A stretch of DNA of 64,000 nt from Chloroflexota bacterium (GTDB lineage Bacteria; Chloroflexota; Limnocylindria; Limnocylindrales; CSP1-4): assembly GCA_021789435.1 (NCBI GenBank), contig JAJYJO010000002.1:3713-67712 (forward strand), in the 5' to 3' direction. The notes beneath the pieces are model-generated. The model saw nothing but the letters and a program-made list of their open reading frames with translations, had not been told where the DNA came from and did not search any database. The position numbers were made by a program, and so were the translations under genes. Position 1 is the first letter of the stretch, and each line of letters starts with the position of its first letter. This document shows positions 2,542 through 41,096 of this stretch, in pieces.

Positions 2542-3609
2542 GTGAGCCCGCGATGGCGACGCCCGGCGATGGTCTACAACTCGACCGCATGGCGGTGCTG
2601 GGCTTCCTGGGCACTCGTCGCCGGCGCCTCGGCAGTGCTCCTTGGCTCGCTCGTGCTCGAGGCGCAACGGACACTCAGCGCCCACTACCTGTTGGTCGAC
2701 TGGCGCACCTACGCGGCTGCCTTCGATCGGCTGGCCCAAGGCGCGAGCCTCTACGATCCGCGCCAGCTTCATGGGCCGTATGACCTACCGTCCGTAACCC
2801 TGACCGGGTACGCGTATCCACCCGTTGCGGCGCTGTTGTTCGCACCGTTCGCCTCGGTGCCATTGGGTCTGGCGACCTGGATCGCCCTGAACGTGGGCCT
2901 TGTCCTTGCCGGTCTCGCCGCAGCCATTCACTCCGCGTTTGGGCGGGTGCGGCCGGAAGCCGTGGCGTTCGCCCTGATCGCGCTCAGCGTATTCCCACCG
3001 TTTCGCGAAGGCGTTGCGGTCGGGAACATCAACGTGGGCTTCTCGGGACTGCTGGCCCTCGCCTGGGCCTCGGGTCGAACGGCTGGCTGGCTCGGCCCGG
3101 TCAGTGGACTCGCTGCGGCGCTGAAGGTCTTCCCTGGGTCCCTCGTGGCGTGGGCCGGTCCCGGCTACCGCACTCGGGCCCTTCTCTCCGCGACGTTGGT
3201 GGGAGCCGCCTTGGTTCTCGTGACTCTGCCTCTGGTTGGCGGCGCCAAGAGCTGGGAGGATTGGCTCACGGCTCTCGGCAACGCCCAACCCGCTTGCGCC
3301 CGGTGGAGCAACCTCTTGCCGTCGATAGCCTGCTCCCTGTCGCCATACGTCGGCTCGGACGTGGCCAAGCTGCTCGGCGGCGCTGTCGGCGCCACCCTCG
3401 CTCTGGCAGCCCTTCTCACGAATCGGACGCAACTCTCGCTGGCCTTGCTGACCGCGGCCTGGCTAGCGCCCGTCATCGACATGGATCCCTACTACCTCCT
3501 GACCCCGTTTGTCGTGGGTCTCGCCCTTCTCTTCCATCGTTTCGGGCGAGCCTCCAGCCGCGCCGTGAGTCCTGTGCCCCAAGAGGCCGAAGGCGACCGA
3601 GGAGGGTGA
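2542..3609 (+). CDS. DUF2029 / GT87-type membrane glycosyltransferase
   Basis: GTG start with GAGGT RBS 8 nt upstream. Multi-TM with the 'AALKVFPGSLVAW' K-x-P loop; divergent from the 990..2234 gene across a ~300 bp intergenic region. Confidence 0.6.
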   Translation: MSPRWRRPAMVYNSTAWRCWASWALVAGASAVLLGSLVLEAQRTLSAHYLLVDWRTYAAAFDRLAQGASLYDPRQLHGPYDLPSVTLTGYAYPPVAALLFAPFASVPLGLATWIALNVGLVLAGLAAAIHSAFGRVRPEAVAFALIALSVFPPFREGVAVGNINVGFSGLLALAWASGRTAGWLGPVSGLAAALKVFPGSLVAWAGPGYRTRALLSATLVGAALVLVTLPLVGGAKSWEDWLTALGNAQPACARWSNLLPSIACSLSPYVGSDVAKLLGGAVGATLALAALLTNRTQLSLALLTAAWLAPVIDMDPYYLLTPFVVGLALLFHRFGRASSRAVSPVPQEAEGDRGG

Positions 3610-3716
3610 GCCGGGAGTCTACCTGGCGGGCCTAGGGAGCCCGTACGAATGGTTCGCTCCCGCCGGTGATCGATCTCCTCTATGCTGCCCGGCACCCAAG
3701 TGGGACGAGGGGCGAA

Positions 3717-4430
3717 ATGAGGGATGACCGGCTCGGCGAGGCCGAAGCGCACGCCGTGGGACGACTGGCACTCCACGAAGGCACGCCCGCATGGGCTGAG
3801 TGGGTCAAGGACTACTACCGAGAAGTGGAGTCGTACGACTGGGTCGACGTCGCCGACCACTTCCGGGGCCCGGAGGCGTTCTTCCATAGAAATCGAGCCA
3901 GGGCCGTCCGTCACCTGATTCGAGAGCACGTCCAAAGGGGTCCGATCCTCGACGCCGGGTGCGGGACCGGACTGAACCTTCGTTCTCTTCCTGAAGGGTC
4001 AACGGGTCTTGACATCAACCCACGGAACATCGCGGTCATCAGAACCCGCCTTCCTCGCCACGAGGCAGTCCTTGGAGACATCGAAGCGATGCCCTTCGCC
4101 GATGGCACATTCCAGGCTGTGCTTTGTACCGAGGTCCTCGAGCACGTTCCCGATCCGAACAGAGCCCTGGCCGAGATCTACCGGGTGCTCGCCCTCGGTG
4201 GAGTCGTGATCGGCTCTGTACCCGCAAGAGCGCTGATATGGCGTCTGCGGTTCCTGTCCAGCACGTGCCCACATTCGGAGCCATTCCACCACGAGTACCT
4301 GCCGGCCGAGGTCGCGTCAATGCTCGACGGGTGGACGATCCGGGTCCTGCGCTACTCGCTCCTGCATTTCAACGTGTTGTTCGTCGCAGAGAAGGCCGGG
4401 CGGGAGGCGGCGGCTCGGCACCCATGGTGA
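3717..4430 (+). CDS. Class I SAM-dependent methyltransferase (alternative GTG start at 3666)
   Basis: Motif I 'ILDAGCGTGLN', acidic post-I 'LGDIEAMPF', 'VLCTEVLEHVPDP' and 'LALGGVVI' are canonical Rossmann MTase motifs. ATG 3717 has a GAGGGG RBS and a TATGCT -10-like hexamer at ~3681-3686. Confidence 0.7.
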   Translation: MRDDRLGEAEAHAVGRLALHEGTPAWAEWVKDYYREVESYDWVDVADHFRGPEAFFHRNRARAVRHLIREHVQRGPILDAGCGTGLNLRSLPEGSTGLDINPRNIAVIRTRLPRHEAVLGDIEAMPFADGTFQAVLCTEVLEHVPDPNRALAEIYRVLALGGVVIGSVPARALIWRLRFLSSTCPHSEPFHHEYLPAEVASMLDGWTIRVLRYSLLHFNVLFVAEKAGREAAARHPW

Positions 4431-4500: not shown

Positions 4501-5613
4501 TCACGCTCCTGACCCGACATCGACGGACCCTGGGCAATCCGAGCTTCCGGTGAGCAATGGCCCCACAAGACCTGGCGCGAACGCCACCGGAATGATCCAC
4601 GGCAACGGCAACCACGCCGAGAGCGGGATCAGGACCGCCCACCACTGGCGCCGCTGGAGCAGCAGGGCGGTGGGGATCAGCAGCAGCATCGCGTAGTGGT
4701 CCCAGAGGAGCGGCGAGAGCAGCTGGCTGGCCACGGCGGTGACGACGTAGGCGGTCTCCGCATCCGAGCGGAGCCAGGCATAGGCCGTGATGGCGATCGT
4801 CAGCGCCATGCTCGCCCACTGGACCAGGCTGGCCGCCGCCTCGCTCGCTCCCATCTGGTAGGCGACCGCGCCCGGCGTGAAGTTGTGGGGCGTGGTGACC
4901 GGGGCGCTCACCCGCCGCAGGATGGCTACATAGTCGGACCAGGCGGCGAGGCCCGTGACCAGCGTCCCCGCGAGGGCGCAGGCCGCGATTGCGATCACCC
5001 CGATCGCGATGGCGCGCCGGCGACCGCCGGCGAGCGCCCAGCCGAAGAGGAGGCCCGGCTGGAGCTTGATGAGCGTGCCGGCGGCCATCGAAAGCCCCAG
5101 CGGCCCCGGCCGGTCCAGCCAGCGCCAGCCGGCGGCGAAGGCGAGGAAGAGGAGCGGGCCAACCTGGCCCAGCTTGATCGAGTAGAGGAAGGGCCACTGG
5201 AGAGCCGCCAGCAGGACCACCAGCCAGCGGACCTCGCGGCGGACCGGCAACAGGGCGACGCCTGCCAGGAACGCCAGGGCCAGCAGGACCGTCCAGGCGG
5301 TCACGGCGATCGTCCCGGGCAGCAGGGCGAACGGCACCATCGCCAGGGCGAAGGGCGGCGGATAGAGGAAGATCGCGAACCCGCCGGCGACATTCACGGC
5401 CGGGTCGTACAGGCGCGCTCCGTCCAGGAGGCGCTGCCCGGCGTGGAGATAGGCCTTGAAGTCGTAGCCGAGGGTCGGGCCGGCGGCGACGGCGATCACG
5501 GCGATCGCCGCTCCGTACGCCAGCAGGGCCACAAGCGGGATCAGCAGCGCCGGCGCCCACGCGGGGCGGCGCTCCTCAGGCCGGGCGATCGCCGTCGGCA
5601 AGGGCCGCGCCAT
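4501..5613 (-). CDS. DUF2029 / GT87-type membrane glycosyltransferase
   Basis: 370 aa multi-TM with the 'GTLIKLQPGLLFGW' K-x-P loop. Its start overlaps the 3' end of the upstream GT2 gene by ~38 nt. Confidence 0.65.
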   Translation of the reverse strand: MARPLPTAIARPEERRPAWAPALLIPLVALLAYGAAIAVIAVAAGPTLGYDFKAYLHAGQRLLDGARLYDPAVNVAGGFAIFLYPPPFALAMVPFALLPGTIAVTAWTVLLALAFLAGVALLPVRREVRWLVVLLAALQWPFLYSIKLGQVGPLLFLAFAAGWRWLDRPGPLGLSMAAGTLIKLQPGLLFGWALAGGRRRAIAIGVIAIAACALAGTLVTGLAAWSDYVAILRRVSAPVTTPHNFTPGAVAYQMGASEAAASLVQWASMALTIAITAYAWLRSDAETAYVVTAVASQLLSPLLWDHYAMLLLIPTALLLQRRQWWAVLIPLSAWLPLPWIIPVAFAPGLVGPLLTGSSDCPGSVDVGSGA

Positions 5614-6397
5614 GCCGGCCCACCCCCCGATGGACGAGCGGGATGCGGAACAGGTCCCAGGCGACCCTGGCCGCCAGCCCGGGCCGCATCCGCATGTGCG
5701 AGCCGGCCCGGTCCGCCCAGTGGATCGGAACCACCGCCAGCCGGTAGCCGCGGCGCCGGGCCAGGTAGATGATCTCCACGTCGAAGACGATGCTGGTCAC
5801 CCGCTGCCGGCCGAAGAGGTCCTGCGCCGCCGACCTGCGGAAGCCCTTGAAGCCGCACTGCGTGTCGCGGATCGGCCCCGTCACCCACAGCGAGGCCAGC
5901 GCCCGGAAGAGTAGGCCGATCAGGCGCCGGTAGAGCGGCTGGCTGGCCCGCATGTCGCTCCCGTCCGGCTGGATCCGGCTGCCCAGCGCCACGTCGGACG
6001 TCTCCAGGGCGCGGGCCAGCAGCGGCAGCTGGTCCGGCGGGGTGGCCATGTCGGCATCCATGAAGACGACCAGGTCGGTCTCCGCCGCGAGCATGCCCGC
6101 CCGGACGGCCGCGCCCTTGCCACCGTGGGGGACCGCCAAGAGGTCGAGCTTCGGCCAAGCGCCCGTCGTCTCCCCGGCTTCGGGCCGGCCGCGGACCAGC
6201 GCCGCCGTGCCGTCCGAGCTCCCGTCGTCCACGACGAGCACCCGGACCCGGCCCGGCAGCGCCTCCGGGCCGGGCGATCCCTCCCGGGCGCGGTCGCCGG
6301 GCCGGCGGAGGTAGCCGAACAGCTCGTCCAGGGCGCCGCCGAGGCGCGCCTCCTCGTTGTAGGCGGGCAGGACGATCGTGAGCGACGTGCCGGTCAT
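5576..6397 (-). CDS. GT2 polyprenol-phosphate sugar synthase (Ppm1/DPM1/GtrB-like)
   Basis: Motifs 'LTIVLPAYNEE', 'VLVVDDGSSDGT', 'GKGAAVRAGM', 'DADMATPPDQL' and 'DTQCGFK' match dolichol/polyprenol-phosphate mannose (or glucose) synthases. Start ATG 6397 (MTGTSL) chosen; the upstream 165 codons of ORF 5576..6889 are a low-complexity extension. Confidence 0.75.
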   Translation of the reverse strand: MTGTSLTIVLPAYNEEARLGGALDELFGYLRRPGDRAREGSPGPEALPGRVRVLVVDDGSSDGTAALVRGRPEAGETTGAWPKLDLLAVPHGGKGAAVRAGMLAAETDLVVFMDADMATPPDQLPLLARALETSDVALGSRIQPDGSDMRASQPLYRRLIGLLFRALASLWVTGPIRDTQCGFKGFRRSAAQDLFGRQRVTSIVFDVEIIYLARRRGYRLAVVPIHWADRAGSHMRMRPGLAARVAWDLFRIPLVHRGVGRHGAALADGDRPA

Positions 6398-6408: not shown

Positions 6409-7458
6409 CTAGAGCCCGCCGGGACCGGCCGGAGCGACGGCCGGCTGGGGAACCTCGGCGGTGGCAACCACCGCCGCCCGGCGACGGGTCAGCCGGCGCC
6501 CGAGCGCGATCGCCGGGCGCTCCACCACGAGGTAGGAGACCGCAGCGACCACCAGCGTCAGGGCGAGCGCCAGGACGGCCGCCGGCGCGCCGGTCGGGCC
6601 GAGCCGGAGCACGGCCCGGATGACGTCCTCGTGCCACAGGTAGATTGCATAGGAGAGCCCGCCCGCCCAGGCCGCCCACGGGCCGAGGGCGGGCCGGCGC
6701 GCGACGCACCAGGCCACGAGCAGCATCGCCCCGGCCGTCGTCACCAGGTCGACCGACGCCCAGATGGCGAACGCGACCCCGAGGAGCACCAGCTGGGCCC
6801 CGGGAATGACCCAGAGCGGGTTGCGGAAGATGCCCAGGCGACCTCGCACGTCGAGGATGGCCAGGAGCATCCCCGGCACGAATGCCCACAGGAAGAAGGG
6901 CAGGAGACTCACGACCTGCGCCCGGTTGGCCAGCCCTCCCGAGAGGTCGTACAGCACCACGACGCTGGCGCCGAAGGAGACGAGGCCCAGGCCGGCCACG
7001 ACGCGAAGCTCCCGACCGCGGGCGAGGAGGGCGATGCCCGGCAGCAGGAGGTAGAAGCCCATCTCCAGCTGCAGGGTCCAGCTGACGCCCAGGAAGCCGT
7101 TGAAGAGCCGGGGATCATAGTTCTGGGCGAAGAGCAGGAACTCCGCGGGGTGATCCAGGAAGGCCTGGCTGCCGCTCAGCAGGGTCACCCCGACGAGGGC
7201 CACCAGGTAGGCCGGGTAGATCCGCAGCAGCCGCCGCACCAGGTAGGACCGGACGTTCCAGTCGCCGGCCACGAACGGCCGGTAGAGCAGGTAGCCTGAC
7301 AGGACGAAGAAGACGAGCACACCGACGCGACCGCCGGCGGCGAAGCCGGCCGCGGGGCCCAGGGCGGCCGGGTCCAGGATCGCCACGTGGCAGACGAGGA
7401 CCATGAGCGCGGCGATGCCGCGGAGGGCGTCGAGCGCCTCCAGGCGACGGCCGCTCAC
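6409..7458 (-). CDS. Acyltransferase family 3 (OafA/OatA-like membrane O-acyltransferase)
   Basis: Motifs 'RRLEALDALRGIAALMVLVCH', 'VLVFFVLSGYLL' and 'LGVSWTLQLEMGFYLL' are acyl_transf_3 signatures. GTG start at 7458 overlaps the stop of the upstream GT87 gene (GTGA). The listed 786-aa ORF 6409..8769 is a fusion artefact. Confidence 0.7.
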   Translation of the reverse strand: MSGRRLEALDALRGIAALMVLVCHVAILDPAALGPAAGFAAGGRVGVLVFFVLSGYLLYRPFVAGDWNVRSYLVRRLLRIYPAYLVALVGVTLLSGSQAFLDHPAEFLLFAQNYDPRLFNGFLGVSWTLQLEMGFYLLLPGIALLARGRELRVVAGLGLVSFGASVVVLYDLSGGLANRAQVVSLLPFFLWAFVPGMLLAILDVRGRLGIFRNPLWVIPGAQLVLLGVAFAIWASVDLVTTAGAMLLVAWCVARRPALGPWAAWAGGLSYAIYLWHEDVIRAVLRLGPTGAPAAVLALALTLVVAAVSYLVVERPAIALGRRLTRRRAAVVATAEVPQPAVAPAGPGGL

Positions 7459-8669
7459 CGCGCGAACTCCGCGTGGACCGCGGCGCGAGCCCCGCCGGCG
7501 ATCGCCGCCAGGACGAGGCCGACCGCCAGCCAGACCAGGACCGGGGCCACGATCGAGACGATCGCGGCCAGCACCGCCAGCCCCAGGACGACCTGGACGG
7601 CGAGGGCGCGGCGCCCCCCGGTCGCCAGCAGCCAGGCGGCGACCCCGAACGGGATCAGGGCCACCGGGTAGTGGAACCAGGTCACCGGCAGGACGGCGAG
7701 CGAGGCGACCGCCGCCCAGGCCAGGCTCTCCAGGGGGTCCGCCCGCAGCCATGCGGCGGCCACCGTGACCGCCACGGCGACCGCGGCCACGACCACGGCC
7801 AGCGGCCGGGCCACGGCCGGGCTGCCCAGCAGCAGGGCCAGCTGACTGGCCGGCCCGATGTTGAGCCGGGAGGCGAGGTCGGCCCCGGAGCTGGTCCGGA
7901 GCATCGCCACGTAGTCCGCCCAGGGCCCCGTCCCGAAGGCGGCCAGGCTCCCGCCGAGAACCGCCGCGGCCGTGACGACCGCCGCTCCAAGGACCGTCCA
8001 GGCCGGGCCGCGGCCGCGCAGGGCCCGCACCAGGAACCAGAGCCCCAGGACGGCGGGATGGACCTTGATGACGCTGGCCAGGCCGAGCGCGACGCCGCCG
8101 CCGATGAGCGTGGCCCGCCCGGCCCCGCCCGCCTCGGCCAGCGCCGCCAGGAGGACCAGCCCGTAGAGGAGGCCGAACCAGGCGTCCACGTTGCCGAAGA
8201 GGAGGGCCACGGCGAAGGGCGACACGAACGGCGCCAGGGCCAGGAGCGGCAACAGGACGGCGGGCGCCGGCCGCCCCGGGGCAAGGCGACGCGCCAGCAG
8301 GACTGCGACCAGGCCCAGGCCCGCCGTGGCGCCCACGCCCCACAGCGCCAGTGCCGCACCGGACGGAAGCCCGGCCACGGGGGCCAGCGCCTGGGCCAGG
8401 GGCGGCGGGTAGGAGTAGAAGAGGTCGCTGGCCTGGAGGCGGCCGGCCACGGCCGCCGGGTCGTAGGGGGAGCCACCGCCGGCGACGCGGCGGGCCGCGT
8501 CCAGGATCAGCTGGAGATCGAAGCCGGCCTGCGGCGGATGCTGGGCCAGCATCGTCGCCCCGAGCTGGAGCAGGCCGAGCCAGCCGACGCCTCCGAGCAC
8601 GGCCCAGCCGAGCAGCCCGGGACGACGGGCGACCATCGGCGGCGCCGCGGTGCGATCCATCCGCGGCAT
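7455..8669 (-). CDS. DUF2029 / GT87-type membrane glycosyltransferase
   Basis: Start ATG 8669 (MPRMDRTAAPP...). Multi-TM with 'LASVIKVHPAVLGLWFL' K-x-P loop. It is the real C-terminal part of the artefactual 1110-aa ORF 7455..10787. Confidence 0.65.
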   Translation of the reverse strand: MPRMDRTAAPPMVARRPGLLGWAVLGGVGWLGLLQLGATMLAQHPPQAGFDLQLILDAARRVAGGGSPYDPAAVAGRLQASDLFYSYPPPLAQALAPVAGLPSGAALALWGVGATAGLGLVAVLLARRLAPGRPAPAVLLPLLALAPFVSPFAVALLFGNVDAWFGLLYGLVLLAALAEAGGAGRATLIGGGVALGLASVIKVHPAVLGLWFLVRALRGRGPAWTVLGAAVVTAAAVLGGSLAAFGTGPWADYVAMLRTSSGADLASRLNIGPASQLALLLGSPAVARPLAVVVAAVAVAVTVAAAWLRADPLESLAWAAVASLAVLPVTWFHYPVALIPFGVAAWLLATGGRRALAVQVVLGLAVLAAIVSIVAPVLVWLAVGLVLAAIAGGARAAVHAEFAR

Positions 8670-8723
8670 CGTAGACCCCCGCCGAAGCGCCAACAGGCCG
8701 CCGACCGGCGGTCGGGGCGTGGG

Positions 8724-8765
8724 CCATTCGTACCGGTCGGAGGCGCCGGGACCCGGTGCTAGACT
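8724..8765 (+). promoter_or_regulatory. Promoter-like element CCATTCGTAC-N13-CCGGGACCCGGTGCTAGACT (extended -10 TGcTAGACT at 8757-8765) in the divergent GT87/GT-C intergenic region
   Basis: The -10-like TAGACT lies 9 nt upstream of the GTG start at 8775, so the transcript is probably leaderless. An almost identical element (CCATTCGTA-N..-CCGGGACCGGTGCTACAGT) occurs upstream of cpaB at 16610-16649. Confidence 0.45.
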
Positions 8766-8774
8766 GCACCGGCC

Positions 8775-10433
8775 GTGCGGAGACCCATCGCCCTCTATGC
8801 GTTCGCCCTGCTCGTCCGGCTGGGGTTGATTGCGGCCTTCCCTCATCCGGCCTATGTCGATTCCTACTACTACGTCAACGTGGCGCAGGCGCTCCAGGCC
8901 GGCCACGGCCTCAACATCGACTTCATCTGGGCCTTCGTGGATGTGGGCGGCCGGCTGCCGGCGAACCCCCACCTCCCGATCCCGAGCAACGCCCACTGGA
9001 TGCCGCTGGCGTCCCTGGTCCAGGTCCCCTTCCTGGCCCTCTTCGGCTCGGCCTCCTGGGCTCCCCAGGTCCCCTTCGCCCTCTTCGGGGCGCTCGCCGC
9101 GCCGCTCACCTGGGCGATCGCGCGCGAGGCCGGGGCGAGCCGGTCGGTCCAGCTCGGCGCCGGCCTGCTGGGCGCGGTTCCGGCCGGGGCCACCATCTTC
9201 ATGAGCCAGCCCGACAACTTCGGGCTGTACGAGGTGCTGGGCGCGGCGGCCCTCTGGCTGACGGCGCGCGGGCTCCGGGGGGACAGCCGCGGCTTCGCCC
9301 TGGCGGGCCTGCTGGTGGGGTTCGCCACGCTGGCCCGCAACGATGGCGTGCTGATCGGGCTGGTGGTGGCCCTTGCCTTCTTCTGGGACCGCTGGCGGGC
9401 CTGGCGTTCCGGCGGCGGCCGGCGACCGGCCATCCCGTTCTGGTCCGCGGTCGCCTGCGCGGCGCTCTTCGCCGTGGTGATGGTCCCCTGGTATGCGCGC
9501 GAGCTGGCCGTCTTCGGCAGCATCTCGCCCTCGTCCTCGTCCGGCCGGATCCTCTTCATCCGGGATTTCGCCGAGATGAACAGCATCACCACGCCCACCA
9601 CCCTGGCCTACTTCCTGGGCCAGGGGATCGGGCCACTGGTCACGAGCCGCGTCCTGGGCCTGGTGGCGGCGGCCGCCAACTTCGCCGTCATCATCTGCTC
9701 GCTGGTGCTGGCCCCGTTCCTGGTGGTGGGGGCCTGGCGAAGGCGCCGATCCGGTGATTTCGGGCCGTTCCTGGTCTACTTCGCCGTCCTCTTCGCCTTC
9801 TCCGCCCTGGTCTCCGCGGTCCACGTACCGTACGGGACCTTCCTCCACTCTGCGGTGGCGCTCGCTCCGCACACCTACGTCCTGGCGCTTGAGGGCGTGG
9901 TCGCCGCCGTCGGCTGGGTGGCCCGTCGCCGTCGGTCCTGGCACGAGGAGCAGGCGGTGCCGGTCTTCCTGTGGGGCACGGTGGGCCTGACGATGCTGAC
10001 CGCGGCGGCCTTCACCGTGAGCGTGGTCAACGGCTGGACGGTGGAGCGGAACTACCAGCTGGCGGTCGCCGCGAAACTGGACCGCCTGGGGGTGCCGGCT
10101 TCCGACCGGCTGATGACGATCGACGCGGGCGGCTACCGCTACACGACCGGGCACGGCGGGGTGGTGACGGTCAACGACCCACTGCCGACGATCGAGCAGG
10201 TGGCGAAGGCCTACGACATCCGCTGGCTGGTCCTGGAGCGGGGCCACATCGTCCCGCCGCTGGTCCCGGTCCTGGGCGGCCAGGTCCACCAGTCCTGGAT
10301 CGGGCCGCCGGTGCTGACGATCCCCTCCTCCGTGGCGGCCGGCACGTATCCGGAGCTGGCGCTGTACCCGGTCTGCGTGGCGCCGGGCGACGCGCGCTGT
10401 GCCGCGTCGACAGCGGCCGGGGCCACGCCATGA
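8775..10433 (+). CDS. GT-C membrane glycosyltransferase, PMT_2/ArnT-like (GT39/GT83-like)
   Basis: 552 aa; N-terminal TM then loop 'HPAYVDSYYYVNVAQAL' (acidic/aromatic loop-1 motif), ~11 TM helices and a C-terminal periplasmic domain. It is a paralog of the next gene. Confidence 0.65.
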   Translation: MRRPIALYAFALLVRLGLIAAFPHPAYVDSYYYVNVAQALQAGHGLNIDFIWAFVDVGGRLPANPHLPIPSNAHWMPLASLVQVPFLALFGSASWAPQVPFALFGALAAPLTWAIAREAGASRSVQLGAGLLGAVPAGATIFMSQPDNFGLYEVLGAAALWLTARGLRGDSRGFALAGLLVGFATLARNDGVLIGLVVALAFFWDRWRAWRSGGGRRPAIPFWSAVACAALFAVVMVPWYARELAVFGSISPSSSSGRILFIRDFAEMNSITTPTTLAYFLGQGIGPLVTSRVLGLVAAAANFAVIICSLVLAPFLVVGAWRRRRSGDFGPFLVYFAVLFAFSALVSAVHVPYGTFLHSAVALAPHTYVLALEGVVAAVGWVARRRRSWHEEQAVPVFLWGTVGLTMLTAAAFTVSVVNGWTVERNYQLAVAAKLDRLGVPASDRLMTIDAGGYRYTTGHGGVVTVNDPLPTIEQVAKAYDIRWLVLERGHIVPPLVPVLGGQVHQSWIGPPVLTIPSSVAAGTYPELALYPVCVAPGDARCAASTAAGATP

Positions 10434-12121
10434 GCGCCCCGCGCACGCCCGCGCCGGACGCCTTCGTCCTGTCGCCCCGCGAGGCCTGGCTGAGTGCCGG
10501 CCTCGTCTTCCTGGTGGCGCTGGCCGTCCGGGCCGTCTCCGCGGCCGGGGTGCCGTTCCCGGTCCCGGAGGACACCGCCTACTACGTGGAGGTGGCCCGC
10601 AACCTGGTCCAGGGCCGCGGCCTGGTGAGCGACGCGCTCTGGAGCTACCAGACACCGGCCCTGGACCCGGCGACGGGGACCTTCGGGCTCTTCTTCCCGC
10701 GGCCGGCCTTCGAGGTCTGGCTGCCGCTGCCGAGCCTGCTGATGGCCGTCCCGATGCTGCTCTTCGGGCCGACCTTCCACGCCGCACAGGTCATGTCGGT
10801 CCCGGTCGGGGCGCTCGTGCCCGTGCTGGCCTGGCGCCTGGGCGCCGACGTGGCGGCGGAGCTGGGCCTGCCGGCGGGGCGGGCGCGGACGATGGCCCTG
10901 GGCGCCGGCCTCTGCGCCGCGGTGTTCGGGCCGCTCGTCCTGCACAACCTGCTGCCGGACTCCACGATGGTCTTCGCGGTCCTCGCTCTCTGGGCCTGCC
11001 TGCTGATGGAGCGGCTTGTCCGGGACGCAAGCGGGGGACGGCGGATCGCGTCGCTGGACCGCCGGCTGCTGGGACTGGGCGTCCTGCTGGGGCTGGCCGC
11101 CGTGACCCGCAGCGAGGCGGCCTGGGTCGCCCTGACCTGGGCGCTGCTGGCCTGGCTGGCCGTACCGGGAGCGCGCCGGGAGCGGCTCCGCCTGGTCGCG
11201 GTCCCGGCGGTCGTGGCGCTGGCGGTCTTCGCTCCCTGGGGGATCCGCGACTGGCGGATCTTCGGCTCGCCGCTGCCCGGTCAGACCGCGGCCAATGCCT
11301 TCTCCGTGACCGGCTTCGACATCTTCGCCTACCAGGTCCTGCCCACCCTCCAGCGCTACCTGGCGCAGGGTCCGGCGGCGCTGCTCCGGATGCGCGTGGA
11401 GGGCTTCGACCACAACCTCTTCTCCGTCCTCCTGATCCCCGCCGTGCCGGTCGGGCCGCTCGGCCTGCTGGCCCTGCCCTGGACCGGCCGGCTGCGGTCG
11501 CTCCGGCCACTGCTGATCGTGAGCCTCCTCACCTTCACCATCACGACCCTGGTCTTCCCGGTCGCCACGACCTGGGGCACCTTCCTCCACGCGGCCGGGC
11601 CGGTGCACGTCCTTCTGCTGGTCAGCTGCCTGGTGGCGCTCGACGCGGTGATCGCCCGGGTCGGGCGCTGGCGCGGCTGGACGCGGCCGGTCGCCTGGCT
11701 GGGCCCGGCCCTGGTGGCAGGGGTCGCCGCGCCCTTCCTGCTTCTGACGGTGACCGGGATCGGCAGCCTGGCAGCGGACACGCAGGCTCGCTACGCGGCC
11801 CTGCCGGGCCGCCTGGCGGCCGCCGGCATCCCGCTCTCGGCCGACGCGCCGGTCGTGACGGACTTCCCGATCTGGCTCTCCTACGCGGACGGCGTCCCGA
11901 CCCTGGCCCTGCCCGACGAGTCGCCGGCCAGCGTGCTGTCGCTCGCCCAGCGGTTCGGGGCCCGGCTGCTCGTGGTGCAGAGCAGCGGCCACGGCGCGTG
12001 GCCCCAGGTCATCGAAGGCCCGAACGCCCCGCCCGGGGCGGCCTGCTTCCAGGCGGTCCCGCTGCCGCCGGCCGGGGCCGCCCTGGCCGAGACGCGTGCG
12101 TACCTCATCGTCTGCCGCTGA
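10430..12121 (+). CDS. GT-C membrane glycosyltransferase, PMT_2/ArnT-like, tandem paralog of 8775..10433
   Basis: ATG 10430 overlaps the upstream stop (ATGA). Loop-1 motif 'PVPEDTAYYVEVARNL', many TM helices. It is in frame with the tail of the listed ORF 9971..12121. Confidence 0.6.
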   Translation: MSAPRTPAPDAFVLSPREAWLSAGLVFLVALAVRAVSAAGVPFPVPEDTAYYVEVARNLVQGRGLVSDALWSYQTPALDPATGTFGLFFPRPAFEVWLPLPSLLMAVPMLLFGPTFHAAQVMSVPVGALVPVLAWRLGADVAAELGLPAGRARTMALGAGLCAAVFGPLVLHNLLPDSTMVFAVLALWACLLMERLVRDASGGRRIASLDRRLLGLGVLLGLAAVTRSEAAWVALTWALLAWLAVPGARRERLRLVAVPAVVALAVFAPWGIRDWRIFGSPLPGQTAANAFSVTGFDIFAYQVLPTLQRYLAQGPAALLRMRVEGFDHNLFSVLLIPAVPVGPLGLLALPWTGRLRSLRPLLIVSLLTFTITTLVFPVATTWGTFLHAAGPVHVLLLVSCLVALDAVIARVGRWRGWTRPVAWLGPALVAGVAAPFLLLTVTGIGSLAADTQARYAALPGRLAAAGIPLSADAPVVTDFPIWLSYADGVPTLALPDESPASVLSLAQRFGARLLVVQSSGHGAWPQVIEGPNAPPGAACFQAVPLPPAGAALAETRAYLIVCR

Positions 12122-12146: not shown

Positions 12147-13271
12147 ATGGACGCCGGACGGACGGGGACGGACGCGCGCGAGGGCCGCTTCGACGAGCTC
12201 TATGCCGAGGCGAAGGCGACCCTGGGCTATGGCGCCAACACGCTCCGCTCGATCAGCGAGCGCTACCGCGAGGTTTACCGCGACGCGCTCGCCCGCTGGC
12301 ACGCCCTGCGCGACGAGCTGGAGGCGGTGGATCGCGCGACGCCCGGCGCCGCCCCTCCGACAGACGCGGGTGACGCGGCCGCTGTGGACGGCCTGCCCGG
12401 ACCTGCCGGGGCGCTGGCGGCCGAGGCCGGCGCCGAGGATGCCCGCCGGCGGGCGCTGCGGTCGGACGTGGAGCGGATGACCGGCGACCTGGGCCGCCAC
12501 CAGGGCGAGCTCTCCAAGCTGGAGCTGACCGTCCGGAGCATGGAGAGCGGCTGGCTCTTCCTGGAGCGCGGCGACGTCAGCCTGCTCACCGAGCGCGACG
12601 TGCCCTGGTTGCCGACGGACATCCAGATGCGGATCGTGGAGGCCCAGGAGGCCGAGCGGTCGCGCCTGGCCCAGGAGGTCCACGACGGGCCCGCCCAGGC
12701 GCTCTCCAACGCGATCTTCCAGGTGGAATACATCGAGCGGGTGCTGGACCAGAACACCCGGCTGGCGCGGACCGAGCTGCGCTTCCTCCGGGAGCTGCTG
12801 CGCCGCGAGCTGGGCGACGTCCGGACCTTCATCAGCCAGCTCCGGCCCCCGCTCCTCGACGAGCTGGGCCTGGACGGGACGATCCTGGACGCCGTGGAGA
12901 ACATGGCCGCCCTCGCCGGCATCACCATCGAGACGGAGCTGGCCGCGCCGGGCGACCGGCTCTCCGACGTGGAGCAGGCGGGCGTTCTCCGGATCGCCCA
13001 GGAAGCGCTCCAGAATGTGCGCAAGCACGCCGGGGCCCGGCGGGCCGTGGTGGCCACCCGCCTCGAGGGGACCGACTGGGTCCTGGAGGTGCGGGACGAC
13101 GGCCGGGGCTTCGACATCGGCCAGGTGGCCACCCGCGGCCGCCGCAACTTCGGCCTCCAGTTCATGCGGGAGCGGGCCGACCTGATCGGCGCCCGCTTCG
13201 AGGTTCGTTCTCGCCCCGCCGGGGGCGCCATCGTCTGGCTCGCCATCCCGATCGGAGAGGAGGGTTCATGA
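12147..13271 (+). CDS. Cytoplasmic sensor histidine kinase, HisKA_3/DegS-like
   Basis: No TM; coiled-coil N-terminus. H-box 'LAQEVHDGPAQALSNAIFQVEYI', N-box 'QEALQNVRKHA', G1 'VRDDGRGFD', G2 'GLQFMRERA'. TATACT -10-like hexamer at 12132-12137 lies 9 nt before the ATG (leaderless). Confidence 0.75.
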   Translation: MDAGRTGTDAREGRFDELYAEAKATLGYGANTLRSISERYREVYRDALARWHALRDELEAVDRATPGAAPPTDAGDAAAVDGLPGPAGALAAEAGAEDARRRALRSDVERMTGDLGRHQGELSKLELTVRSMESGWLFLERGDVSLLTERDVPWLPTDIQMRIVEAQEAERSRLAQEVHDGPAQALSNAIFQVEYIERVLDQNTRLARTELRFLRELLRRELGDVRTFISQLRPPLLDELGLDGTILDAVENMAALAGITIETELAAPGDRLSDVEQAGVLRIAQEALQNVRKHAGARRAVVATRLEGTDWVLEVRDDGRGFDIGQVATRGRRNFGLQFMRERADLIGARFEVRSRPAGGAIVWLAIPIGEEGS

Positions 13272-14011
13272 GCGCAATGGAGTACCAGGGCCCGGAGCGG
13301 CGGCGCGGCGGCCCGGACCGTCGCGGCGGGGAGAAGACCCGCATCCTGCTGGTGGACGACCACGCCCTCTTCCGGGTGGGCATGCGCAACATCCTCGAGC
13401 GCGAGCCCGACTTCGTGATCGTGGGCGAGGCGGACGACACCCGCAGCGCCTTCGACGGTGCCGTGGAGAACGCCCCGGACATCATCCTGATGGACCTCTC
13501 GCTCCCGCCTCCCGGCGGCATCGAGACGACCCAGCGCATCAAGCGCGAGCTGCCCGCGGCGGGGATCATCGTCCTGGCCGTCAGCGAGGACGAGGACCTG
13601 CTCTTCGACGCGATCAAGGCCGGCGCGGCCGCCTTCATCCTCAAGGACATCGGCCCCGACGACCTGGTGACGATCATCCGCCGGGTCGCGACCGGCGAGT
13701 TCCTGATCAACGACAAGGTTTTCTCGCGGCCGGCCGTCGCCAGCCGGGTCCTCAAGGAGTTCCGCGAGCTGGCCATCTACGGCCAGGAGGCCGCCCCGAT
13801 CTTCGCCCCTCTCTCGCCGCGGGAGGTCGAGATCCTGGACAACATCGCCCAGGGGATGACCAACAAGCAGGTTGCCTATGCCCTCTCGATCAGCGAGCAG
13901 ACGGTCAAGAACCACATGAGCTCGATCCTCCGCAAGCTGAGCGTCAACGACCGGACCCAGGCGGTCGTCTACGCCATGCGCCAGGGCTGGATCCGGATGC
14001 CCGAGGACTGA
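13268..14011 (+). CDS. Response regulator, NarL/LuxR family (DegU-like)
   Basis: ATGA overlap with the kinase. Receiver 'RILLVDDHALFRVGMR ... IILMDLSLP' plus C-terminal LuxR HTH 'LSPREVEILDNIAQGMTNKQVAYALSISEQTVKNHMSSILRKL'. Confidence 0.8.
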   Translation: MSAMEYQGPERRRGGPDRRGGEKTRILLVDDHALFRVGMRNILEREPDFVIVGEADDTRSAFDGAVENAPDIILMDLSLPPPGGIETTQRIKRELPAAGIIVLAVSEDEDLLFDAIKAGAAAFILKDIGPDDLVTIIRRVATGEFLINDKVFSRPAVASRVLKEFRELAIYGQEAAPIFAPLSPREVEILDNIAQGMTNKQVAYALSISEQTVKNHMSSILRKLSVNDRTQAVVYAMRQGWIRMPED

Positions 14012-14017
14012 GGCAGG

Positions 14018-15244
14018 GTGAGCGACCCGCAGCCGGCCTCCCCGGCCTCCCCGGCCGGCCTGGCCGACCTGGCAGCCGGCACGCGCCGGCAGGTCGACCT
14101 GCTCGGGGTGGAGCTGGCGGAGATCGACCTGCTGGTCGCCCAGGCCAGGTCCGAGGCCGGCCGGCACGAGCAGAGGCGCGTCCAGGCGGCCGAGAAGAGC
14201 AAGGCGGCGACCGACCGCGGCGCCGACGCGGCCGAGCTCGCGGAGCTGGGCCGCCAGCTCGTGGCCGCCACCCGGCGGGCGGCCGTCATGGAAGCCCAGG
14301 TGGACGTGCTGGAGGGCAAGCAGAAGGTCCTGGGACGCTTCCGCGACAGCCTGGCCGGCGAGGCGGTGGTGCTGGAGCGGCTGGCCGGCGGTGGCGGGGC
14401 ATCCGGCGGCGCCGCGGCGGGCGCGCTCGGGCCGGCTTCGGCCACGGAGGGCGAGCCGGGCGTGCTGCCGGCCGGGGTCTCCCGGCTGCTGCTGAGCGCC
14501 CAGGAGGACCTCCGCCGGGACATCGCCCGGGCGATGCACGACGGCCCGGCCCAGAGCCTGACCAACATCGTCCTCCAGGCCCAGATCGTGGATCGCCTCC
14601 TGGGCCGCGACGCGGCCGCGGCGGCGGCCGAGCTGCGCCAGCTGGTGGCGATGGTCCAGGCGACGCTGGAGGCCACAAAGTCCTTCATCTTCGACGTCCG
14701 GCCGATGGTCCTCGACGACCTGGGGCTGGTGCCGACGATCCGGCGGGCGGCCCTGGAGCGATCCCGCCGCGCCCGCATCCCGGTCGCGTTCGAGTCGGTG
14801 GGACTGGACCGCCGCCTGCCGATGGACGTGGAATCGGGCCTCTTCCGGATCCTGGACGAGGCGACCGAGGCCTATCTCGGCCTCGAGCCGGACCGGGTGC
14901 TGATCGACCTCGACTGGTCGGAGCGGCTGGCCGCCCGGGTCCGCGCGGTGCGCGACGCGGCGCCACAGGCGGAGGAACCGGCCGCGGCCGGCGGGGCGTC
15001 GGGCCGGCGCCGCCTGCGCTGGGGACGCGGCCGCGACAAGGAGCCGGAGGTGCCGGCTGCTCTCGCCGCCATGATCGAGGAGCGCCGGAGCGCGGAGGAG
15101 GCCGCCCGGACACCGGCCCCGATCGGCCTGCCCGCGCCCGCCTGGCGAGCCATCCAGCAGCGGGCCGCGGTGATCTCGGTGAGCGTGGAGCTCGCCGATG
15201 AGGGGCGCGACCTGCGCGTCGGCTTCGAGCCCGGCCGGGCCTGA
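14018..15244 (+). CDS. DegS-like histidine-kinase paralog with degenerate catalytic (CA) domain, a putative pseudokinase or phosphatase
   Basis: Coiled-coil N-terminus and intact DHp H-box 'IARAMHDGPAQSLTNIVLQAQIV'. The N-box is replaced by 'LDEATEAYLGL' (no Asn/Lys/His), there is no DxGxG, and there is an Ala-rich insert. Confidence 0.55.
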   Translation: MSDPQPASPASPAGLADLAAGTRRQVDLLGVELAEIDLLVAQARSEAGRHEQRRVQAAEKSKAATDRGADAAELAELGRQLVAATRRAAVMEAQVDVLEGKQKVLGRFRDSLAGEAVVLERLAGGGGASGGAAAGALGPASATEGEPGVLPAGVSRLLLSAQEDLRRDIARAMHDGPAQSLTNIVLQAQIVDRLLGRDAAAAAAELRQLVAMVQATLEATKSFIFDVRPMVLDDLGLVPTIRRAALERSRRARIPVAFESVGLDRRLPMDVESGLFRILDEATEAYLGLEPDRVLIDLDWSERLAARVRAVRDAAPQAEEPAAAGGASGRRRLRWGRGRDKEPEVPAALAAMIEERRSAEEAARTPAPIGLPAPAWRAIQQRAAVISVSVELADEGRDLRVGFEPGRA

Positions 15245-15246
15245 CC

Positions 15247-15459
15247 GTGGGGACGGCGCTCCTTCGCGACGGCCGGGAGGCCCCGGCCCGCCTGCTGGCG
15301 GCCGCGCGCCGGCTCTCCCGGGAAGAGGCCCAGGGCCTGGTGGAGTACGGCCTGATCCTGGCCCTGATGGCCCTGGTGGCGGTCGTGGCCCTCACCTTCT
15401 TCGGCGGCGAGCTCTCGACCCTGCTCAGCGTGGTCGGCGGAGCGGCCAGCGCCGGTTGA
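15247..15459 (+). CDS. flp: Flp/Fap family type IVb prepilin (flp1); start uncertain
   Basis: C-terminal '...EEAQG|LVEYGLILALMALVAVVALTFFGG' matches the Flp processing and hydrophobic-core motif. GTG start immediately after the upstream stop. Confidence 0.6.
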   Translation: MGTALLRDGREAPARLLAAARRLSREEAQGLVEYGLILALMALVAVVALTFFGGELSTLLSVVGGAASAG

Positions 15460-15566
15460 GGGTGGTGCGTCCGCTCCTAGGACGAATTGCCTAATGGATT
15501 CTGCGGTCCGTGCCGCCTACAGTCCTGATGCCCCGCTCTGGGGTCCGCTCTCATCGGGAGGCTTGT

Positions 15567-15746
15567 ATGGCGCTCGTCAATCGGCTCTACGCGTTCCTCG
15601 CCACCTTCGGTCACGACGAGGAAGGCCAGGGTCTCGCCGAGTACGCGCTGATCCTCGCCCTCATCGCGATCCTGGCGATCATCGCCCTGCTCTTCCTGGG
15701 CGGCCAGGTCAAGACGATCCTGAGCAACGTCGGCAACTCGATCTAG
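15567..15746 (+). CDS. flp: Flp family prepilin (flp2)
   Basis: ATG 15567 with GGGAGG RBS. 'MALVNRLYAFLATFGHDEEGQG|LAEYALILALIAILAIIALLFLGGQVKTILSNVGNSI'. The last 132 nt (15615..15746) are 131/132 identical to flp4. Confidence 0.75.
   Translation: MALVNRLYAFLATFGHDEEGQGLAEYALILALIAILAIIALLFLGGQVKTILSNVGNSI
15615..15746 (+). repeat. 132-bp direct repeat (copy 1; copy 2 at 16372..16503), 131/132 identical, covering the mature-pilin-coding part of flp2 and flp4
   Basis: Direct sequence comparison; single C/T synonymous difference. Confidence 0.8.
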
Positions 15747-15768
15747 CTCGCCGTCTGCGACCGACAAC

Positions 15769-15801
15769 GTGAAGGCCGCGCCCGGTGGGCGCGGCCTTCA
15801 C
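15769..15801 (+). terminator. Perfect 15-bp stem / 3-nt loop GC-rich hairpin after flp2 (intrinsic-terminator-like, no U-tract)
   Basis: gtgaaggccgcgccc-ggt-gggcgcggccttcac, 23 nt after the flp2 stop. Confidence 0.5.
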
Positions 15802-15966
15802 GCGTCGGGACGCCGTTGACGGCGCCTCGCCGTCGCCACGAGCGTTCCCAACTGCCCGGCTGCGGGAGGGCCGCCACCGGTTCATCGCCGTCATCCCGGG
15901 TGCCGCGCACCACTGCCCTCGCCGGGGGAGAGGCGGGGAGCCTCGAAGGAAAGGAGGTGGTGGAGC

Positions 15967-16140
15967 GTGTCCAGCGCAGTCGCACTCATCTCATCCATCA
16001 TCCGGCGCGACGACCGCGGCCAGGGCCTGGCCGAGTACGCACTCATCCTCGCCTTGATCGCGGTCGTGGCGATCGTCTCGCTCATGTTCCTGGGGCAGAA
16101 CGTCCAGACGCTGATCAGCACCGTGGGAAGCTCGGTCTGA
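15967..16140 (+). CDS. flp: Flp family prepilin (flp3), 57 aa, below the ORF-track length cut-off
   Basis: GTG start preceded by AAGGAGGTG SD (15951-15959). 'MSSAVALISSIIRRDDRGQG|LAEYALILALIAVVAIVSLMFLGQNVQTLISTVGSSV'; stop TGA 16138-16140. Its 5' leader is homologous to that of flp4. Confidence 0.7.
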   Translation: MSSAVALISSIIRRDDRGQGLAEYALILALIAVVAIVSLMFLGQNVQTLISTVGSSV

Positions 16141-16180
16141 GCGGGCGGAGCAGGAAAGCACCGATACCGGCCCTGACCCC

Positions 16181-16209
16181 TTGACAGCCCGCGGACACGC
16201 GCATAGGGT
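16181..16209 (+). promoter_or_regulatory. Sigma-70-like promoter TTGACA-N17-TAGGGT upstream of flp4
   Basis: TTGACA at 16181-16186, 17-nt spacer, TAGGGT at 16204-16209. Confidence 0.4.
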
Positions 16210-16329
16210 GGCGCGGCCAGTCGACCAGGGAGGCGGTGGGAGCCAGCATCGGGCTCGGAAGCCTGCCCGGCCGTGACGGCAACCCCCGCCCGGGGGCGGG
16301 GAGTCTCGAGGAAAGGAGGTGCCCACCCC

Positions 16330-16503
16330 ATGACCTATCTCATGGCTCTCATCTCGTCCTATCTTCATCGTGACGAGGAAGGCCAGGGTCTCGCCGAGTA
16401 CGCGCTGATCCTCGCCCTCATCGCGATTCTGGCGATCATCGCCCTGCTCTTCCTGGGCGGCCAGGTCAAGACGATCCTGAGCAACGTCGGCAACTCGATC
16501 TAG
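16330..16503 (+). CDS. flp: Flp family prepilin (flp4), near-identical duplicate of flp2
   Basis: ATG 16330 with GAAAGGAGGTG SD. Sequence from the DEEGQG|LAEYAL processing motif to the C-terminus is identical to flp2; the DNA differs at one synonymous site (ATC/ATT). Confidence 0.75.
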   Translation: MTYLMALISSYLHRDEEGQGLAEYALILALIAILAIIALLFLGGQVKTILSNVGNSI

Positions 16504-16526
16504 CGAGCGCCGTCGTTCTCGATCCA

Positions 16527-16552
16527 AGGGGCCGCGCCTTCGGCGCGGCCCC
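16527..16552 (+). terminator. GC-rich hairpin (11-bp stem, ttc loop) after flp4
   Basis: ggggccgcgcc-ttc-ggcgcggcccc, 24 nt after the flp4 stop; it separates the pilin array from cpaB. Confidence 0.5.
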
Positions 16553-16603
16553 TCCGTGTCCCGGGGGATCCCTCCTGTCAGCCGGGCGATTCGTCCCGCG
16601 CGT

Positions 16604-16649
16604 CCTAGGCCATTCGTATAGTCGCGGGCCCCGGGACCGGTGCTACAGT
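16604..16649 (+). promoter_or_regulatory. cpaB promoter-like element: CCTAGG-CCATTCGTA-N..-CCGGGACCGGTGCTACAGT (extended -10 TGcTACAGT at 16641-16649)
   Basis: Shares CCATTCGTA and CCGGGACC(C)GGTGCTAnAnT with the 8724-8765 element. A related CCTAGG-N36-TACAGT architecture sits upstream of flp2 (15476-15531). Confidence 0.45.
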
Positions 16650-16683
16650 GGTGCCACCTGTCACAAGGCTGGGGAGAGGGTGT

Positions 16684-21443: not shown

Positions 21444-21445
21444 CC

Positions 21446-28798: not shown

Positions 28799-29200
28799 GG
28801 GCTGCCCGGCACTCCTGCTCCCGCGCGGCGGTGCCGCGATGCGCCAACTATCGCCACGGCGCGGGCCGGTCGATATGACCCGTTGGTACCGGGGGGTGCC
28901 GACCGCTCGGCGTCGCGGCTGCAAGCCGGGCAGCAAGGCGGAGCGGGTGCGGTGGCGAAAGGCGTCGTGCCCGGGGCCTCGGGGTACGGCGCATCACCCG
29001 CCGGCGGGCGGGGGGCAGCGAGTGGGGAGCGGCCGGAGTGGGGAGCGGCCGGAGCGGCCGGACGACCAGGGGCCGGGGCGCAGGACGAGGCTCGGCAGTG
29101 AACGCGGGGGCGAGTTCACCTGTCTCGCCCCCGCGCAGCGGGCCGACGGTTGCCGAGGGGGTGCAGCGGCCGACCCGAGGATCGATGGCTGTTCCCGAGG

Positions 29201-37248: not shown

Positions 37249-41096
<3,848 letters not shown>

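Follow-up and report, generated by a model that had tools for sequence, protein, structure and literature searches.

The 64-kb stretch of Chloroflexota DNA studied here (the window; G+C 72%) raises the question of whether a short pattern ahead of a methyltransferase (MTase) gene, in which the hexamer CCTAGG stands beside an ATTCG-type word, belongs to a regulatory element shared with genes of the Tad pilus. An earlier note on this DNA had placed the same pattern upstream of the pilin gene flp2 and of cpaB, and had taken it for an operator serving a regulator dedicated to the glycosylation and pilus genes. The sequence comparisons below support a shared cis-regulatory element that links pilus and glycosylation genes. 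The conserved unit is, however, not the CCTAGG palindrome but a 15-bp box, nT(A/G)G-(C/G)-(C/T)C-n-TT-(C/G)-GTA(C/T) or roughly CTAG-N7-GTAC. As judged from sequence, the box is most likely a previously undescribed element of an ordinary type, one through which a dedicated regulator would control its regulon.

Genes in the window were called by codon statistics together with Pfam. The protein of the GT-C gene PMT_2 (8775-10433, plus strand) was compared with the GTDB species genomes, which gave 11 loci (L001-L011), all from metagenome-assembled genomes (MAGs) and with PMT_2 identities of 47-61%; ten carry Chloroflexota labels, Candidatus Limnocylindria and Limnocylindrales among them, and the eleventh is labelled Dormiibacterota. 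The response regulator encoded in the same cluster retrieved 80 further loci from metagenomes, and footprinting drew on a set of about 100 loci, taken from metagenomes and from MAGs of Candidatus Limnocylindria. The order GT87 / PMT_2 / PMT_2 paralogue / histidine kinase / response regulator / histidine kinase / flp genes / cpaB / cpaE / cpaF is conserved across these loci, with the response regulator 81-89% identical and CpaB only 31-70%.

The box was described by a weight matrix built on 40 distinct instances from the relatives, with the window left out. T2 and G12 are found in 40/40 of these instances, and G4, T13 and A14 each in 39/40. The matrix was searched against the 64-kb window and the related loci, and its four top matches in the window, at 16605 (plus strand, 23.7 bits), 8719 (plus, 20.8 bits), 28875 (plus, 16.8 bits) and 15480 (minus, 12.9 bits), are the promoters of cpaB, PMT_2, an XRE-family helix-turn-helix (HTH) regulator gene and flp2, respectively. 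Simulated windows hold about 0.1 matches of at least 15 bits and about 1 match of at least 11 bits. Throughout L001-L091 (712 kb) all matches of at least 15 bits are at cpaB, PMT_2 or flp2-type promoters, and the later loci added matches at PMT_2, at the MTase genes of L092/L093 (17.3 bits) and at XRE promoters (12.6-16.8 bits). The footprint extends over 31 distinct sequences at cpaB, 33 at PMT_2, about 17-20 at flp2-type promoters and 5 at the XRE gene; the flanking intergenic DNA is unalignable, and the neighbouring proteins are 31-70% identical.

The best match in the window, CTAGGCCATTCGTAT at 16605..16619 on the plus strand, lies in forward orientation upstream of cpaB (16684-17571, plus strand). 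It spans five bases of the CCTAGG described previously and the whole of CCATTCGTA. In the alignment of about 90 nt upstream of cpaB from 31 distinct sequences the box reads (C/G)(C)TAGCCC(A/T)TTGGTATAGTCGCG, and the relatives share the layout (A)ATyCTTCCTAG, 4-5 nt, the box, about 14-16 variable nt, GGTGC-TACAGT-GGTGCCACCTGTCACA, GGGAG and the start codon. In the window, the extended -10 TGC-TACAGT (16641-16649, plus strand) and the block GGTGCCACCTGTCACA directly after it (16650-16665) fall in columns that are at least 90% conserved in the 31 sequences, and they are followed by the Shine-Dalgarno sequence GGGGAGAGG (16671-16679) ahead of the GTG start at 16684. The GGTGCCACCTGTCACA block may serve as an operator near +1, or else as an element of the mRNA 5' end. 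A further block upstream of the box has degenerated in the window (ATTCGTCCCGCGC, 16589..16601, plus strand); it aligns to AATyCTTCCTAG/TTCCTAATGG of the relatives, where the main box is preceded, at a distance of about 9 nt, by a second CTAG-type box that retains a CCTA, at least 90% conserved, lost from the window.

The PMT_2 box, GTGGGCCATTCGTAC at 8719..8733 on the plus strand, was missed by the earlier note. It is likewise in forward orientation, and a homologous box is present in 33 distinct sequences, where the layout is (A/G/C)T(A/G)G(C/G)(C/T)C-n-TT(C/G/A)GTACCGGT, about 12 variable nt, CCGG(T/C)G(A/G)TGC-TAnnnT-GCACCGGCC-GTG. The window carries an extended -10 TGC-TAGACT (8757-8765, plus strand), then the conserved GCACCGGCC and a GTG at 8775, 9 nt past the -10 (the whole at 8757..8777). 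In the alignment of these promoters the invariant columns are GTAC and G.TG.TA...TG, and the three middle bases of the hexamer are free; the invariant TG.TA...T around a variable middle indicates that the extended -10 is genuine. The start codon is found 7-10 nt past the -10 in the relatives, hence the PMT_2 transcript is probably leaderless or nearly so.

The gene divergent from PMT_2, a GT87 glycosyltransferase gene (7455-8669, minus strand), is separated from it by a 105-nt spacer in which both genes look leaderless and neither has a Shine-Dalgarno sequence (8757-8777; 8667-8684 on the minus strand). The arrangement TGCTAGACT, 9 nt, GTG at PMT_2 is kept in relatives, and the GT87 gene shows TACGAT, 7 nt, ATG. 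We also asked whether the palindrome CCGGTGC-N6-GCACCGG, which spans the PMT_2 -10, acts as a hairpin or an operator, and rejected both ideas: the right arm is non-complementary in the clade of L006, L027, L029, L032 and L063, and no covariation was seen. RNAalifold run on 31 PMT_2 upstream sequences gave -1.8 kcal/mol and three pairs, without covariation. It should also be noted that L011 (DATHCS010000333.1), which is binned as Candidatus Dormiibacterota, shares this PMT_2 promoter and has a CCATTCGTACCGGTC box without a mismatch, which is either a binning error or an indication that the element reaches beyond Chloroflexota.

At flp2 (15567-15746, plus strand) the box is reversed and lies upstream of the gene at 15480..15494 on the minus strand (plus strand GGACGAATTGCCTAA, minus strand TTAGGCAATTCGTCC), followed by a -35-like TGGATT (15495-15500) and a -10 TACAGT (15518-15523). 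It is homologous in position to GGTAC(C/G)AAnnGsCTAGTGG in about 17-20 flp2-type promoters, all reverse, whose layout GGTAC(C/G)AAnnG(C/G)CTAGTGGnCTTC-N17-(C/T/G)ATAGTGG is the reverse complement of the cpaB/PMT_2 block; in L050 the counterpart of the window box is GGTACGAATTGCCTAGTGG. The CCTAGG at this promoter (15476..15481) shares two bases with the box at its distal end, in columns that vary among relatives, and the true equivalent of CTAG is CTAA (15491-15494), inside what the earlier note wrote as 'cctaATGG'. The flp2 leader past the -10 (15530-15566) is conserved as well, reading GCCCTC-ATCCGGGGG and then ACTCATCCAGGAGG, and may form a small hairpin and a Shine-Dalgarno context. The pilins of flp2 and flp4 (16330-16503) are identical from DEEGQGLAEY to the C-terminus and differ in leader peptide and in promoter type (box versus TTGACA), so one mature pilin could be produced under two different modes of control.

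The fourth promoter belongs to the XRE-family regulator gene (28259-28798, minus strand; HTH_3 2.2e-13). A variant of the box, ATGACCCGTTGGTAC at 28875..28889 on the plus strand, stands 77 nt upstream of the gene and is reversed relative to it. On the minus strand the promoter reads GTACCAACGGGTCAT-N22-GATAGT, with the -10-like GATAGT at 28852-28847, a reverse geometry like that of flp2. In L099-L102 the XRE orthologue is likewise preceded by a conserved GGTAC(C/G)AACGGGT(C/G)ATA (around 2388-2420), which with the window makes five genomes.

All of these boxes lie 22-27 nt upstream of a conserved TAnnnT -10 (the gap being 24-26 nt at cpaB, 25-27 at PMT_2 and 22-24 at flp2), and about 31-34 nt separate the centre of the box from the first hexamer base. 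If transcription starts about 7 nt past the hexamer, the box centre would fall at about -43 to -46. Orientation is fixed by promoter class. The forward class, with the CTAG end distal, a gap of 24-27 nt and an extended -10, comprises PMT_2 and cpaB, at which every box is forward; the reverse class, with the GTAC end distal and a gap of 22-24 nt, comprises flp2, the XRE gene and perhaps the MTase gene, and the flp boxes are reverse in 20/20 cases.

The promoters with the box have a good, often extended (TGn) -10 and no TTGACA -35. We compared 128 distinct flp upstream regions: none of the 20 with a box has TTGAC(A/C)-N16-18-TAnnnT, which is found in 22 of the 108 box-less regions, and none of these 22 carries the box. 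A box-less flp promoter in the window is TTGACA-N17-TAGGGT at 16181-16209, and canonical TTGACA-N17-TAnnGT promoters precede the later flp genes, many of them in the related loci. The sequences thus show directly that housekeeping promoters of Limnocylindria follow the standard consensus. Scans for consensus promoters and terminators, run over 3500-3760, 8640-8800 and 15400-16700, gave no matches and were uninformative; the promoter scan overlooked even TTGACA-N17-TAGGGT, since it demands at least 4/6 matches to TATAAT.

The MTase site from which the question arose (3631-3657) is the weakest member of the set. It holds a half box at 3643..3657 on the minus strand (plus strand GTACGAATGGTTCGC), with a perfect GTAC/CCATTCGTAC half and no CTAG half. 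The CCTAGG at 3631..3636 is 6 nt distal to this half box, on the side opposite to that expected for the CTAG. The 10-mer GTACGAATGG of the half, which is also part of the PMT_2 box, is expected about 0.04 times per window as estimated from base composition, and the half box lies 22 nt upstream of a -10-like TATGCT (3680-3685), which matches the reverse class. In L092/L093 the MTase orthologues have a full forward box (17.3 bits) with a GGTGC-TACATT-GCACC promoter; no box was found at the MTase loci L094-L098, which include the closest homologues (L096/L097, 74% identity). We put the odds that the window's site is functional at about one half.

The segment 2196-4500, which holds a GT87 gene (2542-3609, plus strand) and the MTase gene (3717-4430, plus strand, with an in-frame ATG at 3717), has a lower G+C content (0.67) and was not called by the codon model. 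This GT87+MTase pair is missing from the syntenic loci L001-L011, and because the region is non-syntenic the site could not be footprinted there. In relatives the MTase gene is often immediately upstream of PMT_2, as in L092-L094, and a rearrangement or acquisition in the present genome is suggested. We also considered an invertible promoter at this site, as the minus strand reads CCATTCGTAC-N21-TAGACT, PMT_2-like and facing away from the MTase gene. This was rejected, there being no flanking inverted repeats and no significant fold; the region folds no better than its shuffles (z = -0.64), and no inverted repeat or terminator was found in it.

The three strings from which the operator was first proposed, CCTAGGgagccCGTACGAATGG at 3631-3652, CCTAGGACGAATTGcctaATGG at 15476-15499 and CCTAGGCCATTCGTA at 16604-16618 (the last being the window version of the cpaB box), are all correct in sequence and position, and so is the reported spacing of CCTAGG to TACAGT, N36 at flp2 (15482-15517) and N34 at cpaB (16610-16643). 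The statement that these were all the CCTAGG sites in the window did not survive an exhaustive search, which returned four. The fourth, at 39563-39568, includes the TAG that ends the gene for the ATP synthase alpha subunit (atpA, 39564-41096, minus strand), 21 nt ahead of the gamma-subunit gene, and has no ATTCG-type motif; the earlier note had named just such a site as what would refute it. Four copies against 7.2 from shuffles is an unremarkable count. The CTAG core has 20 copies against about 69 expected, roughly 3.4-fold under-represented; only 2 of them lie within open reading frames off the stop codons, and the remainder are stop codons, -10 elements (TGCTAG...), boxes and intergenic DNA. 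As CTAG is depleted and nearly limited to stops and intergenic DNA, the confinement of CCTAGG to non-coding DNA is largely compositional.

The pairing itself exceeds chance. ACGAAT/ATTCGT occurs 8 times in the 64 kb, and 3/4 of the CCTAGG sites have a copy within 20 nt; when the intergenic ACGAAT words were re-dealt solely among the 5,466 intergenic bases, the proximity gave P = 2e-4. The 9-mer TACGAATGG occurs exactly three times in the window, two of these being sites already described and the third, missed before, lying upstream of the PMT_2 gene (8724-8732, minus strand). A one-mismatch TACGAATGG upstream of hpf (23708) was taken as chance, as it lacks T2, G4 and A14, has no matrix match of at least 9 bits and is 50 nt from a -10-like hexamer. 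Phylogenetic footprinting, which had been put forward as a check, shows conservation of the 15-bp box and not of the palindrome, most relatives having CCTAGC or GTAG/ATAG in place of CCTAGG. In sum the observation stands in part, and its interpretation is partly supported in a corrected form: a shared, conserved cis-element is present, CCTAGG is not its conserved unit, and its geometry favours activation over repression.

We suggest that the box is probably the binding site, near -43, of a dedicated activator at promoters that lack a -35. The placement of the box centre on such promoters points to activation rather than repression, and the deep conservation, the strict spacing, the use of both orientations and the restriction to few promoters, together with the missing -35, point to a transcription-factor site used for activation; neither chance, an RNA motif nor a sigma element would yield all of these together. 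The bound protein would replace the missing -35 contact and recruit RNA polymerase in class II fashion. Its targets in the window would be the PMT_2 operon, flp2, the cpaB-cpaE-cpaF-tadBC operon and the XRE gene, and possibly the MTase gene.

As to the protein, the NarL-type response regulator encoded in the cluster (13268-14011, plus strand; Response_reg and GerE domains) is our first candidate, though we hold this assignment tentatively and at something short of even odds. Its closest solved relatives are NarL (1a04, E = 2e-36), VraR and DevR. That kinship, its position inside an operon with the box (PMT_2, the PMT_2 paralogue, a kinase, the regulator itself, a second kinase and flp1), the two flanking kinases, its unusual conservation and the precedent of PprB make it the natural candidate; if it is the binder, it would be subject to positive autoregulation. 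The conserved XRE protein comes second and with a lower expectation, perhaps one chance among several. Many homologues of it are 85-92% identical over about 70% of the query, several named Limnocylindria or Limnocylindrales by NCBI, and it too would be autoregulated if it binds the box.

Several points weigh against the activator reading. The MTase site fails the matrix (below 9 bits), having only the GTACGAATGG half without the T(A/G)G half, and the flp2 box of the window, at 12.9 bits, is not significant alone, given the chance rate of about one match of at least 11 bits per window. The cpaB box coincides in part with an extended -10 close to consensus, which most relatives show as TGGTATAGT with a TTCCTA placed 18 nt before it, and part of the conservation there could be due to a second promoter. 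Either GGTGC-TAnnnT-GCACC (PMT_2) or GGTGCCACCTGTCACA (cpaB) could be the regulator's true site; a second promoter or a second regulator may account for GGTGC/GCACC around the PMT_2 -10, for GGTGCCACCTGTCACA after the cpaB -10 and for the extra TTCCTAG block, with its TATAGT, at cpaB. Positions such as -43 depend on a -10 that was itself inferred from sequence. Further, the box is not the clear inverted or direct repeat that dimers of the NarL family or of Cro/CI type usually bind: its symmetry is limited to T2A3/T13A14 (a TA-N9-TA pseudo-symmetry) and partly positions 5/11, and CTAG versus GTAC could instead represent two direct copies of TA(G/C) at a distance of 11 bp. Lastly, the data fit either of the two conserved HTH proteins equally well.

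The same box and mechanism could be served by the XRE protein, autoregulated, with the NarL-type regulator acting at other sites, such as the GGTGC/GCACC or TGTCACA blocks. The reverse box conserved in the XRE promoter of five genomes would fit this, as would a protein conserved as highly as the response regulator and a gene syntenic with GT-C/GT87 genes a few kb from the tad cluster. Lambda CI likewise activates PRM from a 15-bp site near -42. We nevertheless find the XRE protein the less probable binder, though a serious alternative: the box is asymmetric and non-palindromic where palindromes are the usual sites of Cro/CI-type dimers, the box of the XRE gene itself consistently differs in the proximal tetramer, with T(C/G)AT for CTAG, and the other four targets group around the response-regulator gene and not the XRE gene. 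Should the box instead serve the polymerase itself, as an UP-like element touched by the alpha subunit or as the -35 of an alternative sigma factor, then its fixed distance to the -10, the lack of another -35, its relative A/T-richness in a 72% G+C genome and the overlap with a -10-like TATAGT at cpaB would all be accounted for. This is improbable. A sigma -35 would not tolerate opposite orientations at the same distance, a gap of 22-27 nt is far above the 16-19 nt spacer of the sigma-70 family, and at 16-18 nt downstream of the box lies the variable stretch, with nothing conserved. Canonical TTGACA-N17-TAnnnT promoters occur in the same loci, which implies an ordinary housekeeping polymerase.

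The finding of both orientations at one position excludes not only a sigma -35 element but an RNA motif as well. In favour of RNA elements acting post-transcriptionally (leaders, attenuators or a small RNA) are the length of the conserved blocks, about 55-80 nt, the short GC-rich palindromes nearby and the conserved stretches in the cpaB and flp2 5' untranslated regions. We consider this extremely improbable, as the whole window holds no match to an Rfam family at gathering threshold, neither the PMT_2 alignment (no covariation) nor the fold at the MTase site lends it weight, the box is found on either strand, and with the PMT_2 start 7-10 nt past the -10 the box is upstream of the transcript. 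A compositional coincidence, in which CTAG- and AT-containing words crowd into the small intergenic fraction of a high-G+C genome, is favoured by the depletion of CTAG and its near absence from coding sequence, by a CCTAGG count under expectation, by the fourth site being merely a stop codon, by the non-conserved positions of the hexamer at flp2 and by the lack of a homologous region for comparison at the MTase gene. The proximity test under the intergenic-only null opposes it, and conservation of the cpaB, PMT_2, flp2 and XRE boxes across a bacterial class refutes it for the box itself. Coincidence is therefore very improbable as an account of the pattern, and is tenable only for the hexamers at 3631 and 15476.

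The proposed activator site resembles several known systems. The arrangement recalls PprAB and the flp-tad-rcp genes of Pseudomonas aeruginosa, where PprB, of the NarL/LuxR family, directly and positively controls flp/tad at the promoters for both pilin and assembly genes (PMC3510237). In both a NarL-type regulator gene stands beside the Tad locus, here with two kinases between the glycosyltransferase and the flp/cpa genes. Unlike PprAB, the present system is from an unrelated phylum, has two HisKA_3 kinases and would add GT-C/GT87 and XRE genes to the regulon. A PprB consensus for comparison with the box was not found in the literature searched. Sites for NarL and RcsB, enterobacterial regulators of the NarL/FixJ family, are short (about 14-16 bp) and have TA-containing ends; those for NarL are 7-2-7 arrangements of heptamers (TACYYMT), and RcsB boxes, placed immediately ahead of the -35, activate promoters whose -35 is weak. 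Compared with these, the box is similar in its 15 bp, its ends (TAG, GTA) and its probable centre near -43, and differs in lacking the 7-2-7 inverted repeat, in its half-sites (CTAG versus GTAC) and in their spacing.

With class II activation, as by CRP at -41.5 or by lambda CI at OR2 on PRM, the box shares a site at or next to the -35 position of a -35-less promoter and a strict helical phasing, the gap varying by 1-2 nt; it differs in its centre, inferred at about -43 to -46 and not -41.5, and in being asymmetric with an orientation fixed by class. The PMT_2 and divergent GT87 promoters resemble the leaderless extended -10 promoters of Actinobacteria and Deinococcus-Thermus in having TGnTAnnnT or TAnnnT 7-10 nt before the start and no Shine-Dalgarno sequence. 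This likeness concerns the core promoter and not the box, and cpaB and flp2 have normal leaders with Shine-Dalgarno sequences. An integration host factor (IHF) site was also considered for the reversed box TACCAAnnnnCTA and rejected, because the invariant positions differ from the IHF consensus WATCAANNNNTTR.

Limnocylindria are abundant Chloroflexota of soil and freshwater with no cultured, genetically tractable member, and their gene regulation is almost unknown; the literature searched on the class makes no mention of pili. The conserved box offers a testable regulon that ties Tad pili to glycosyltransferases, two candidate regulators amenable to in vitro work, and loci that give direct sequence evidence on the promoter architecture of the class (TTGACA/TAnnnT, extended -10, leaderless starts). 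General principles of bacterial transcription are unchanged by it. Further, we speculate, with clear reservation, that one class-wide box may join Tad assembly, the pilins, GT-C/GT87 glycosylation of envelope or pilin, the two-kinase NarL-type system and the XRE regulator in a single adhesion and surface-remodelling regulon of uncultured Limnocylindria. In such a regulon the strict two-orientation grammar (forward with an extended -10 and partly leaderless, reverse with a -35-like TGGnCT) would imply an asymmetric activator-polymerase complex undescribed for the NarL and XRE families.

The remaining genes of the cluster are arranged as follows. Between the MTase gene and the divergent GT87 gene, the minus strand carries another GT87 gene (4501-5613), a GT2 gene (5576-6397) and an acyltransferase gene (6409-7458). 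On the plus strand, PMT_2 is followed by its paralogue (10430-12121), a HisKA_3 kinase gene (12147-13271), the response regulator gene, the second HisKA_3 kinase gene (14018-15244) and four flp pilin genes (15247-16503), and cpaB by a cpaE-like gene (REC-ParA, 17672-18910), cpaF (19002-20411) and tadB and tadC (20430-22381). The XRE gene is syntenic with MreB-PHP-LPG_synthase on one side and PMT_2/AP_endonuc_2/hpf/ComF on the other. The 400-nt spacer between it and the gene at 29201-30163 contains a short tandem repeat, two copies of gagtggggagcggccg followed by gagcggccg (29017-29065), and a GC-rich hairpin at 29100-29135.

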